A stretch of DNA of 64,000 bases from Candidatus Multivorans sp. (lineage in GTDB: Bacteria; Acidobacteriota; Thermoanaerobaculia; Multivoradales; Multivoraceae): the NCBI GenBank assembly GCA_965247095.1, contig OZ251997.1, forward strand, positions 2,595,689 through 2,659,688, written 5' to 3'. Below are positions 47,456 to 50,474 of the stretch, piece by piece. The first letter of the stretch is position 1, and every line of letters begins with the position of its first letter. The notes under the pieces were generated by a model. It had not been told where the DNA came from and searched no databases. It saw only the letters and a program-made list of their open reading frames with translations. Both the position numbers and the translations under genes were made by a program.

Positions 47456-47574
47456 CAATGAGTTCCGGAGTGTCTTCGGTGGTGGCCCCGCGACATGCGA
47501 AAAGGGCGTGGCCAGCGGCCGCGCCCTTGGAAGACTTGGTAGCGGGGGCAGGATTTGAACCTGCGAGCCTTGGG
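47456..47574 (-). repeat. tRNA-fMet-derived repeat: distal partial unit, hairpin, and the 3' part of the unit split by IS21
   Basis: Contains GTGTCTTCGGTGGTGGCCCCGCG (47470-47492, 5' acceptor-like), a hairpin at 47502-47528, and TGGTAGCGGGGGCAGGATTTGAACCTGCGAGCCTTGGG (47537-47574). Confidence 0.75.
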
Positions 47575-47687
47575 TGGAGGCATGGCTCGGAAACTGAGCC
47601 ACCCAACGCTCGGAAAGTGATCCACCCTCGGCCCTGACACCGGTAGCTTGGTCTTGTTCAGTAGACCAACGCGCTCGGAGGAAGGAC

Positions 47688-49129
47688 TTGCTGAGGATGG
47701 ATCAGGTTCATGTTATTCGGCACCAGGTGCTGGTGGAGGGTCGGAGCCAGCGCTCGGTGGCTCGGGAGCACGGTGTGAGCCGCAACACGGTGCGCAAGTA
47801 CCTGGATCAGAGCGAGCCGCGGCGGGTGGAGAGCAGGCCGCGGCGGCGGCTGGTGACGGAGCGTGTGGCGCCTCGTCTGGAGGAGTTGCTGAGGACGTGG
47901 TCTCGCCGGACGACGGCGAAGCAGCGTCTGACGGCGACGCGTCTGCATCGCCAGTTGCTGGAGGATGGCTACGAGGTCTGGATCACGACGATTCGCAGCT
48001 ACGTTCGGGAGTGGAAGCGTCAGCGCCAGGAGACGTTCATTCCGCTGGTGCACCGTGCCGGCGAGTGCGGCCAGGTGGACTTCTTCGAGGTGACGGTGGA
48101 GGAGGACGGTGTGGCGCACCGGGTGTGGAAGTTCCTGCTGCACCTGCCGTACTCAGGCCGTTCGTTCGTGTGGCTGTACGACCGCTGCGACCAGGTGGCG
48201 TTCCTCGACGGCCACGTGCGGGCGTTCGCGCACTTCGGCGGCGTGCCGCTGCGTCTGGTCTACGACAATCTGAGTGCGGCGGTGCGTCGGCGGGTGGGCG
48301 GCGAGCGTCAGTTGACGGCTCGATTCCAGGCGCTGGTGAGCCACTACCTGTTCGAGCCTTGCTTCGCCCGCCCCGGCGAGGGGCACGACAAGGGCAGCGT
48401 GGAGTCGCGCGGCAAGGGAATCCGTCTGGCGCACATGAGTCCGGTGCCTCAAGGCCGCACCCTGGAGGAGATCGCACGGGCGTGCTGGCTTCGGTCGACG
48501 CGGCACACAGTCAGCGCGCCCGGTGGCAGGAGGAGCAGGCAGCTCTGCGCGAGCTGCCGCCGACCGCGTTCGAGGCAAGGAAGCTCAGGATCGTGCGGGT
48601 GTCGCGCCAGGCGACGGTGCAGTTGGGCGGCGCGATCTACTCGGTTCCCTCGCGGTGGAAGAGCCTCCAGGTCCATGCCCGCGTCGGTACGGGCGACATC
48701 GTCTTCACCTGTCGCGACGCGGAGTACCGCTGCGCTCTGGTGCGGCCGGGACAGCGCCTGGTGCGCTACGCGCACTACTTCGAGGAGCTGTCCCGGAAGC
48801 CTCAGGCGGTGCGACAGGTGGCTCCGGAGCTGCTCGCGGAGCTTGGCCCGGCCTATCGCAAGCTATGGAGAATGCTGGAGTTGCGGCACGGCGCGCTGGA
48901 GACGGCGCGGCTCTTCGCCAAGCTGTTGAGCGTGGTCACAGACCACGGCAGCGAGGAGGTAGCCGCCGCACTCGAGGAGGCCCTGACCGCCGGTCGCTTC
49001 GACCTTCTGGGACTCGCCCTGCGGAGTCCCGCCTCCAAGATCGAGGTGCCGGAGCCGCTCCGCCGCCACGACATCGAGAGCGCTCGCGCCGCCGACTTCG
49101 ACGTGCTGCTTCAGGAGGCGGCATCGTGA
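47688..49129 (+). CDS. istA: IS21 IstA transposase, split by an apparent frameshift near 48470-48485
   Basis: Frame 1 (track 47688..48929) is good up to ...PVPQGRTLEEI. The homologous continuation LASVDAAHSQRARWQEEQAALRELPP...VLLQEAAS is in the frame of track ORF 47648..49129. Confidence 0.8.
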
Positions 49130-49878
49130 GCCGGGCGGCACGCAGAGCCGTCATCGCCGAGGGCCTCAAGATGCTCAAGATGCCTTCCGTGCTGCGCGAC
49201 TACGAGCAGCGGGCGCGTCAGGCCCAGGACGCACAGTGGGACTACGAGGACTACCTGTGGCAACTGCTCGAGACCGAGATTCGGGACCGTGAGGCCCGCA
49301 CCGTCGAGCGCCGGCTGCGCGCGGCCCGCTTCCCCGACCACAAGACCCTCGAGCAGATCGACTTCCAGGCGCTACAGGGAGTGTCCAAACCGAAGCTGCG
49401 CGAGCTGGCCTCCTGCGACTACATCGACCGCGGCGACGACGTCGTCCTCGTCGGACCCATCGGCACCGGCAAGACGCATCTCGCGATCGCACTCGGCATC
49501 GAGGCCGCGAAGCGCCGCCGCCGGGTCTGGTTCCGCAAGGCCTCCGACCTCGTCCGCGACCTGATCGAAGCCCGCGATCAGCGGGAGTTGGGGCGCCTGC
49601 AGCAGTGGCTACAGCGGGTGGATCTACTGATCTGCGACGAGCTCGGCTTCGTGCCATTCGACCGCGCCGGCGGCGAGTTGCTCTTCAACGTCTTCGCCGA
49701 CCGTTACGAGCGCCGCTCGACCATCGTCACCTCCAACCTCGCCTTCTCCGAATGGGTCCGCGTATTCGGCGACGAAAAGCTCACCACGGCTCTGCTCGAC
49801 CGCCTCTCCCACCACGCCCACATCCTCGCCACCAAGGGCTCCTCCTATCGGACTCGGCTGCGGAGAAGCCCTTCGTGA
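49126..49878 (+). CDS. istB: IS21 IstB helper ATPase
   Basis: Contains LVGPIGTGKTHLAIALG, LLICDELGFVP and STIVTSNLAFSEW. The GTG start overlaps the istA stop (GTGA). Confidence 0.9.
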   Translation: MSRAARRAVIAEGLKMLKMPSVLRDYEQRARQAQDAQWDYEDYLWQLLETEIRDREARTVERRLRAARFPDHKTLEQIDFQALQGVSKPKLRELASCDYIDRGDDVVLVGPIGTGKTHLAIALGIEAAKRRRRVWFRKASDLVRDLIEARDQRELGRLQQWLQRVDLLICDELGFVPFDRAGGELLFNVFADRYERRSTIVTSNLAFSEWVRVFGDEKLTTALLDRLSHHAHILATKGSSYRTRLRRSPS

Positions 49879-50154
49879 ATCCGGATCGCACGACGCGCAA
49901 CCGGACCGCCGCGGCGCCGCCGCTGAGAGCACCGCAACGGCCGCCGGCTGCGGAAGCTGCCGGCGCCGCGGAAAACGGCAGACCGTTTCCCGCACCGCCT
50001 TGGAAAACCGGCAGACCGGTTTTCCACAGCTACCGCAGCCGCTACGGCTACTGACTCAAGGGGACCGACGAGAGAAGACTCGCGTACACTCAACACGGCC
50101 GACGTGGCTCACTTTCCAAACGGTGGGTGGCTCACTTTCCGAGCGTTGCCAACA

Positions 50155-50397
50155 CCTTGGGCTATGGCAGGCCGATGAGCTAGGTGTTCCAGAGGTGTGT
50201 TCGGTGGTGCCCCCGCGACAAGCAAGAAGGGCGCGGCCAGCGGCCGCGCCCTTAGAAGACTTGGTAGCGGGGGCAGGATTTGAACCTGCGAGCCTTGGGC
50301 TATGGCAGGCCGATGAGCTAGGTGTTCCAGAGGTGTGTTCGGTGGTGCCCCCGCGGCAAGCAGAAAGGGCGCGGCCAGCGGCCGCGCCCTTGAAGCT
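50155..50397 (-). repeat. tRNA-fMet-derived tandem units (about 136-nt period), each a degenerate tRNA-like segment plus a GC-rich hairpin
   Basis: The 5' part of the IS21-split unit is 50155-50217. The full pseudo-tRNA unit is 50262-50355 (CGCGGGGG...TCGCAGGTTCAAATCCTGCCCCCGCTACCA on the minus strand). Hairpins lie at 50227-50253 and 50365-50391. Confidence 0.8.
50365..50391 (-). terminator. Hairpin immediately 3' of tRNA-fMet (candidate intrinsic terminator)
   Basis: AAGGGCGCGGCC-GCT-GGCCGCGCCCTT forms a 12-bp perfect stem, followed on the minus strand by TCTGCTTG, which is only weakly U-rich. Confidence 0.5.
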
Positions 50398-50474
50398 TGG
50401 TAGCGGGGGCAGGATTTGAACCTGCGACCTTTGGGTTATGAGCCCAATGAGCTACCAGACTGCTCCACCCCGCG
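50398..50474 (-). tRNA. tRNA-Met, initiator type (anticodon CAT), CCA encoded
   Basis: The minus strand reads CGCGGGGTGGAGCAGTCTGGTAGCTCATTGGGCTCATAACCCAAAGGTCGCAGGTTCAAATCCTGCCCCCGCTACCA (77 nt). It shows a C1-U72 mismatch and three G-C pairs closing the anticodon stem, as in bacterial tRNA-fMet. Confidence 0.9.

Follow-up and report, generated by a model that had tools for sequence, protein, structure and literature searches.

The 64,000-nt window analysed here, the whole stretch from position 2,595,689 to 2,659,688 of contig OZ251997.1 of Candidatus Multivorans sp., contains an initiator tRNA gene (tRNA-fMet) followed by a short array of degenerate tRNA-derived repeat units. The only tRNA that ARAGORN reported in the 64 kb is tRNA-Met(CAT), located on the minus strand at 50398-50474; the Rfam tRNA model matched it with 65.7 bits, confirming the intact gene described in an initial annotation of the window. 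Reading of the sequence revealed the hallmarks of an initiator tRNA, a C1xU72 mismatch and GGG/CCC in the anticodon stem, and the gene was identical in about 40 related genomes. A promoter-like arrangement, TTGACA-17 nt-CACGAT, was read upstream of the gene (50487-50515, minus strand) and is the putative promoter; it is also kept in the related loci L001, L032, L083 and L084 and was missed by a consensus scan because its -10 hexamer is weak. The comparison set comprised roughly 50 related genomes, contigs or loci, each designated by L and a number. The host is a sponge-associated acidobacterium, and the Mfd protein encoded in the window shared 94-98% amino-acid identity with metagenome-assembled genomes of the Thermoanaerobaculia 'Candidatus Multivorans' (Acidobacteriota). 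The tRNA-fMet locus is syntenic within the group: an SBP-ABC-permease-MFS operon converges on the tRNA and ftsB(DivIC)-mfd diverges from it. The gap between the tRNA and the ABC/MFS operon measures 60-700 nt and sometimes holds vapBC or an ERG4-like gene.

Downstream of the tRNA gene, Tandem Repeats Finder detected a repeat with a period of 138 nt, 2.2 copies and 92% matches over 50155-50454. The repeat itself had been recognised in the initial annotation, with a period of about 136 nt; the period is constant at 136-139 nt in all species. Each repeat unit consists of a GC terminator hairpin and a 94-nt tRNA-derived segment, and the window holds one intact unit, one unit split by an insertion sequence (IS) of the IS21 family and one 5' stub. 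A 25-nt string of T arm, acceptor and CCA has three exact occurrences (50398-50422, 50262-50286 and 47537-47561) against none expected in shuffled sequences. All parts of the array lie on the minus strand. Next to the tRNA gene, spacer 1 (50356-50397, 42 nt) contains, as an inverted repeat, a 12-bp GC terminator hairpin with arms at 50365-50376 and 50380-50391. It is followed by pseudo-unit A (50262-50355, 94 nt), which was recovered by nhmmer with 84.5 bits and by alignments at exactly the place where a full copy had been proposed. It is built from (C)GCGGGGGC, a 27-nt variable insert, a degenerate anticodon region, the T arm, the acceptor 3' strand and CCA. Spacer 2 (50218-50261) carries hairpin arms at 50227-50238 and 50242-50253, detected as an inverted repeat and by a terminator-like call. 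The 5' part of pseudo-unit B (50155-50217, 63 nt, profile positions 2-65) ends in the target-site copy CCCAAGG, and the 3' part (47537-47574, from sequence and profile match) resumes with the second CCCAAGG copy and continues through the T arm and the acceptor 3' strand to CCA. Between them lies a 2580-bp IS21-family element on the plus strand (47575-50154; Pfam rve for IstA, and IstB_IS21). Excising the element together with one target copy rendered unit B identical to unit A, in full agreement with the earlier proposal of an IS21-split second unit. Spacer 3 (47493-47536), identified by sequence reading, forms a terminator hairpin with one stem mismatch. The array ends with the truncated pseudo-unit C, of which the 5' 34 nt are present (CGCGGGGCCACCACCGAAGACACTCCGGAACTCA, 47459-47492; sequence reading). 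This stub starts at 47492 as annotated, but the similarity extends to about 47459 and not merely to 47470. A 12-bp GC hairpin thus stands behind each copy in the window, and only 44-nt spacers separate the unit copies.

The units align to tRNA positions 21-77 and are 100% identical to the tRNA from CAGGTTCAAATCCTGCCCCCGCTACCA onward; the sequence block specific to them is GCCATAGCCCAAGGCTC...AGCGGGGGC. In their D region there is an insertion of 16-17 nt, and the 27-nt variable segment takes the place of the D arm, as the annotation had it; the 5' strand of the D stem is lost in every unit but L089_u4, the distal unit of locus L089. A 2-nt insertion enlarges the anticodon loop (CT[GC]CATA) and the anticodon stem is broken without compensation. 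The anticodon arm was hence rightly called degenerate, but the CAT triplet, reported as missing, is retained in the enlarged loop. At the 5' end, the motif conserved across relatives is (A/C)GCGGGGGC, while the tRNA itself has CGCGGGGTG. The 5' acceptor strand, described initially as CGCGGGG, pairs as (A/C)GCGGGG with CCCCGCT. The ACCA end is encoded in all full units. The 5' end of the units is a perfect 9-nt complement of the 3' acceptor strand GCCCCCGCT, and it is derived relative to the tRNA: position 1 is changed in 7 of 16 distinct units, in addition to positions 8 and 9. The acceptor-like pairing reaches 9 bp at the cost of the T stem.

The units are dead as tRNAs. In the window and in eight related arrays ARAGORN called the first gene only and no unit, and at thresholds of 70-80% with introns allowed there was still no unit call on the correct strand. 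The Rfam tRNA and tRNA-Sec models reached at most about 16 bits on unit sequence, compared with gathering scores of 29 and 47; these scores included a local T-arm match of 14 bits and tRNA-Sec-like matches of about 16 bits. A further match of 19.9 bits in the window covers partly the IS21 end. A call of the copies as ordinary functional tRNAs, which the initial annotation had named as a refutation of its interpretation, did not occur. Folding of isolated units gave a closing stem of 8-9 bp, formed in competition with the T stem; z was about -3.5 in three of seven units, and the cloverleaf was not maintained. Among the features of a functional tRNA, the units retain acceptor pairing and the 3' CCA; they have neither the cloverleaf nor recognition by tRNA finders or covariance models. 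Decay also affects the T arm. The T-stem change G49>C occurs in units of L031, L032, L003 and L083, and the units of L090 have a mutated T loop and a badly degraded T arm, with GACAGGGTCAAATCC standing in the place of that arm. A conserved hairpin within the variable insert was considered and rejected, as CCGA/TCGG or TTCC/GGAA stems appear in individual units and are inconsistent between them.

The origin of the units can be traced through L089_u4. This unit begins with CGCGGGGTTAGAGCAC, which corresponds to tRNA positions 1-15 and includes the 5' strand of the D stem. A 16-nt insertion follows, the homologue of the insert 'CACCGAAC...' in the units of the window, and L089_u4 has the D-loop insertion and the 2-nt anticodon-loop insertion in common with all other units. 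The presence of tRNA positions 1-15 indicates that the units descend from a complete tRNA-fMet-plus-terminator duplicate, and the two insertions common to all units indicate one old origin followed by many losses. An alternative in which the 5' 36 nt are native flanking sequence, fused to tRNA position 21 via a CTCAT microhomology, was abandoned since L089_u4 favours a whole-gene origin. It had once been favoured by the stubs in the window and L012, which end near this junction, and by short motifs shared with the flanks of the single-copy loci L018 and L021; such a flank-plus-partial-tRNA junction is less likely. Derivation of the 5' part from an inverted tRNA 3' end was likewise rejected, inspection by eye finding beyond TAGCGGGGGC no similarity to the reverse complement of the T arm. 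A CRISPR-like array was dismissed because the supposed spacers are homologous to each other: the variable 27-nt segments can be aligned without gaps and are often identical within a genome.

One to four units occur in about 15 of the related genomes and contigs, whereas about 35 possess only the tRNA and a hairpin. On the Mfd tree the distribution is patchy. Units are found in the window's own clade (divergence at 4-fold sites up to 0.17), in L012 (0.26) and in L044 (0.31), while L022 (0.41) and L077 have no unit and preserve a AGCGGGGGC(TTCC) remnant only. The patchiness and these remnants fit, as far as the sequences tell, one old origin with many losses. Copy number differs between close relatives. 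From the same sample, L085 has three identical units and L086 one; L088 has two units and a stub compared with three plus one in L089; and the window has two type-1 units where L001, at a 4-fold-site divergence of only 0.02, has one each of type 1 and type 2. L001 carries the same stub as pseudo-unit C of the window, and in L003 and L083 a deletion of about 70 nt fuses the T arm to the stub, which is itself as in the window. Hairpin variants are species-specific and common to the tRNA-proximal and unit-proximal spacers in L002, L004, L012, L085 and L090, which points to concerted evolution from the 3' half of the T loop to GCGGGGGC. The unit inserts, by comparison, represent old paralogous types that are discordant with the species tree. 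Orthologous inserts (L032, L003 and L001_u2) differ by only 0-1 nt at a 4-fold-site divergence of 0.10-0.12, and most of the apparent hypervariability of the insert is therefore old paralogy between unit types and not fast evolution. An argument from rates for selection on the whole unit was not adopted on this account, although the old paralogy weakens the conservation argument and does not remove it. In 1.5 Mb of related sequence nhmmer found units at this locus only, and a dispersed mobile element was discarded as an explanation given their confinement to the tRNA-fMet locus. The literature searches returned no description of the array or of 'Candidatus Multivorans'.

We consider the array to be probably a non-functional, recombination-driven relic of a tandem tRNA-fMet and terminator duplication, whose hairpins may still terminate transcription. 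The comparison of the units shows that an old duplicate gained insertions of about 16 nt in the D loop and 2 nt in the anticodon loop and was then no longer a tRNA. Differences in copy number among near-identical strains suggest that a unit of about 138 bp was then amplified, lost and truncated through unequal recombination or slippage. Gene conversion or repeated re-duplication may have homogenised the T-loop 3' half, acceptor, CCA, hairpin and GCGGGGGC within each genome while the middle of the unit drifted. The consensus scan revealed no promoter-like site within the array, and units without a promoter of their own could be transcribed only by read-through of the preceding terminator. To judge from the sequences, the sole likely activity of the units is unidirectional or bidirectional termination at their hairpins, which stand between the convergent tRNA and MFS/vapBC genes. 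The tandem duplication and decay of a tRNA-plus-terminator unit, as proposed initially, is supported by L089_u4, the common insertions, the variation in copy number and the decay of the T arm.

The IS21 element comprises istA from 47697 and istB at 49126-49878 and is bordered by the 7-bp target-site duplication CCCAAGG. A 1-nt deletion in a G run near 48477 shortens IstA of the window to 410 aa instead of 477. An IS21 copy in L001 (4231-6811) is 99.8% identical and has the same orientation, and it occupies a different array position: its target CTTCTA lies just past CCA, whereas CCCAAGG in the window is inside a unit. Because the target duplications are separate, the two insertions into this target of about 400 bp were independent events, and they suggest that the IS21 prefers the array.

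Several observations are difficult to reconcile with plain decay. Variability per column is uneven along the unit, with 26 of 28 columns variable in the insert, two of eight in GCGGGGGC (in L089_u4 only) and 3 of 15 in GCCATARCCCAAGG. GCCATARCCCAAGG is not the sequence of the master tRNA, so its constancy cannot be due to conversion from that gene. The 5' changes C1>A, T8>G and G9>C all raise the complementarity to GCCCCCGCT, which neutral decay does not predict. Moreover, the array persists at 4-fold-site divergences up to 0.3-0.4, though direct repeats are easily deleted. The 5' complementarity could stem from selection for a stem or from template-switch correction of a quasi-palindrome; both are possible. 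If this complementarity or the constant motif derived from the anticodon loop reflects selection, the array would be a new tRNA-derived regulatory RNA or DNA element beside an essential gene. A rival explanation is a terminator stack, possibly bidirectional, or a long composite hairpin, selected to insulate the initiator tRNA from convergent MFS, vapBC or IS transcription, with the tRNA-like part as a passenger. An intact 9-12-bp GC hairpin with compensatory changes between species is present in every copy, and the tRNA and the ABC/MFS operon are convergent at the short distance given above. When the read-through RNA is folded, a composite hairpin of about 26 bp arises from pairing of GCGGGGGC with the GCCCCCGC of the preceding copy, on the other side of the terminator; AGCGGGGGC is kept past the terminator even without a unit (L022 and L077), and the lineage of L079 and L081 has an even longer palindrome in the same place. 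Against this stands the single hairpin with which the 35 or so unit-free relatives manage. The U-tracts are also poor, as seen in the hairpin tails TCTGCTTG, CTTGCTTG and TTTCGCAT, and only one of three hairpins passes a simple terminator scan. Nor is sequence past the U-tract known to strengthen intrinsic termination. Selection as a terminator stack is, on balance, rather unlikely. A role of the units as functional tRNA-like RNAs, cut from read-through transcripts at the acceptor-like stem by RNase P and 3' nucleases and acting as decoys or titrators, for instance of a tRNA-fMet-cleaving PIN toxin like the adjacent VapC-like one or of enzymes that bind initiator tRNA, appears quite improbable. 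It would account for the near-invariance of GCGGGGGC, of the 3' acceptor strand with its encoded CCA and of the anticodon-loop-derived GCCATARCCCAAGG beside an insert saturated with changes, and for the closing stem of isolated units. A vapBC-like module furthermore lies directly downstream on the same strand in the window, L001, L003, L031, L032 and L085/86, and enteric VapC toxins cleave initiator tRNA in the anticodon loop. The structure of the units argues otherwise: the cloverleaf is lost, the 5' side of the anticodon stem varies without compensation, no hairpin is conserved in the insert, the T stem faces competition from the 9-bp stem, and T-arm decay is seen in several lineages. A terminator precedes each unit, and none has its own promoter. 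Units occur without vapBC (L004, L012, L044 and L090) and vapBC without units (L016, L021, L100 and L101). The PIN protein is not close to a characterised VapC, its best match in the PDB being PcrIIC1 (E = 3e-4), and its candidature as a relative of known tRNA-fMet-cleaving VapCs was dropped when no close solved or named relative was found. That the units are maintained tRNA-fMet mimics, RNAs of about 94 nt trimmed from read-through transcripts at the acceptor-like stem, which present the conserved anticodon-loop-derived GCCAUAGCCCAAGG and bind or absorb a factor targeting the initiator tRNA, most attractively the adjacent VapC-like PIN toxin, is extremely unlikely in our estimation. If it were so, the array would be an RNA decoy or a second antitoxin layer analogous to ToxI repeats.

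The repeats could also be scars of site-specific integration, where an attP with a tRNA-fMet-like segment integrated and later deletions left copies resembling attL and attR. The identity of attB and attP at tRNA genes typically spans the anticodon loop to a point past the 3' end, and the conserved block of the units has this same extent. Examples of attachment (att) sites at tRNA genes are available (PMC11476347). Mobile DNA is plentiful at the locus (IS21 twice, a 423-aa transposase element and vapBC), the two spacers of L044 are of different allelic types, and an unrelated contig, L080, contains a 5'-truncated tRNA-fMet fragment resembling an att remnant. Nevertheless, no tyrosine or serine integrase was present among the open reading frames scanned with Pfam, which covered all composition-predicted genes of 231-56016 and selected long frames inside the two low-GC blocks; a scan of two genes that break the conserved order, in L002 and L004, showed that neither is an integrase. 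Downstream of the array, the related loci with units have the conserved ABC/MFS operon; most loci have only a vapBC pair or nothing between the array and the conserved MFS gene. No further repeat copy was detected within 47 kb downstream. The units include the tRNA 5' end (L089_u4), which att duplications do not copy, and their period is the same in all species. The unit pattern was absent from IMG/VR and JGI metagenomes, and blastn against phage records retrieved tRNA-Met genes only, in searches that did not extend to plasmids. The locus shows no foreign DNA or, among the frames scanned, integrase between the repeats and no repeat confined to the 3' part of the gene, no attP matched in the viral, phage and metagenome records searched, and an origin by integration is very unlikely. 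The contention of the initial annotation that this is not a simple attL/attR duplication survives, and in the genes scanned the related loci compared held no integrase-bearing island that explains the repeats. The relic of a tandem tRNA-fMet and terminator duplication remains the preferred reading. Arrays of this kind can be taken for att sites when genomic islands are called.

The array is bounded by the vapBC-like module (46721-47458, minus strand; Pfam PIN and sequence reading), which is not part of the repeat. It consists of a gene for a ribbon-helix-helix (RHH)-like antitoxin at 47181-47423 and a PIN toxin gene at 46721-47203. The module has a promoter, TTGACA-17 nt-TAGTCT, that is near-consensus and is accompanied by an operator-like inverted repeat ACACGAAcTTCGTGT. 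In the unit-free loci L016, L021, L100 and L101 it adjoins the tRNA directly. On the other side of the tRNA gene, an element with a 423-aa transposase (about 50530-52097) is located directly upstream of the -35 box of the tRNA-fMet promoter. Its assignment as rve/IS481-like derives from weak matches in Pfam and NCBIfam. The target duplication of the element reads CTCCAGG, and its inverted repeats GAARTGAGCGTGARCGGG are subterminal. At the same site L045 has a copy with 80% identity; in L087, where tRNA-fMet is absent, a 423-aa gene adjoins ftsB, its relationship to the element being unconfirmed.

Further observations were made in the relatives. At 350-426 of L080, a metagenome contig, the 5'-truncated tRNA-fMet-like fragment scored 37 bits with the Rfam tRNA model, with GAT replacing CAT. 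L079 (11255-11402) and L081 (1090-1237) belong to a different lineage, whose tRNA-fMet is near-identical. There T arm and acceptor recur in inverted orientation behind the tRNA and its terminator, which creates a palindrome of about 100 nt. This palindrome matches Rfam miRNA hairpins only spuriously; past it come further fragments resembling the T arm. A REP-like repeated element (CTGGGTGCGCGGGTCCTCTGACCCGC...GCCGGCGCGCAGCGCCGTCCGCAC) occurs just past the tRNA terminator in L009, L013, L014, L017, L018 and L033-L036 and fills the tRNA-downstream spacer of many single-copy relatives. About 400 nt downstream of the array of L090 there is a long microsatellite-like run of CCCTGACTCTG(A/G)-type repeats. 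Five short-read contigs from related strains (L084, L093-L095 and L104) end within or beside the tRNA-fMet locus, L084 about 20 nt into a unit; repeat-induced assembly breaks may be one possible cause.

Elsewhere in the window, a low-GC block at 3062-8867 (57-61% compared with about 68%) encodes a 776-aa DndB-like protein, an unannotated 546-aa protein and a second rve transposase, and adjoins an AAA_14/DUF4143 ATPase gene (231-1400). The block is possibly a defence-type island acquired by horizontal transfer. At 39593-40711 an IS630-type (DDE_3) transposase gene separates the proline-racemase/peptidase genes from the ABC transporter operon; L001 has it too.

The locus offers a clean natural example of the duplication and death of a bacterial tRNA gene, in which the whole gene and its terminator were copied and the copy was crippled by small insertions. 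The crippled unit was then probably amplified, homogenised and deleted in a 138-bp register, and IS insertions appear to be drawn to the array.

Tandem copies of initiator tRNA genes are known from Escherichia coli, where metZ, metW and metV stand in a row, are all functional and have one common terminator. Such a head-to-tail arrangement is a plausible ancestral state of the array, in which, unlike in E. coli, the first copy alone is a tRNA. ToxI of the type III toxin-antitoxin systems consists of 36-nt tandem RNA repeats that are processed by their own toxin. It resembles the array as a short tandem RNA-gene array with a terminator directly upstream of a toxin gene, a parallel relevant to the decoy reading only. 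The neighbour here, however, is a protein-antitoxin (RHH/PIN) pair with its own promoter, and the association of array and module is inconsistent across genomes. Repetitive extragenic palindromic sequences and bacterial interspersed mosaic elements (REP/BIME) share with the array GC-rich hairpins repeated between convergent genes and the role of IS insertion target; the units, by contrast, are restricted to one locus in the 1.5 Mb searched, are not dispersed and are clearly tRNA-derived. The attL/attR repeats at islands and prophages (PMC11476347) are similar in that a copy reaching from the anticodon loop to the 3' end follows an intact gene at a hot spot of mobile DNA. They differ from the present repeats, which have no integrase or island between the copies and a period of only 138 nt and which include 5' tRNA sequence and a terminator. 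Among described systems, the tandem trnF pseudogene arrays known from some plastid genomes come closest (PMC3786074). In Brassicaceae and Solanaceae, tandem trnF(GAA) pseudogenes accompany the functional trnF; they are attributed to slippage or unequal recombination and have no proven function (PMC3786074). As in those plastids, homologous, degenerate head-to-tail copies of one tRNA gene lie beside the working gene, and copy number varies among close relatives, here from 0 to 4 units across about 50 loci. In distinction to the plastid arrays, the present case is bacterial and concerns the initiator tRNA, and every copy has its own terminator hairpin and an encoded CCA. Its copies moreover derive from a full-length gene with a D-loop insertion, and their 5' end is remodelled to a 9-nt complement of the 3' strand.

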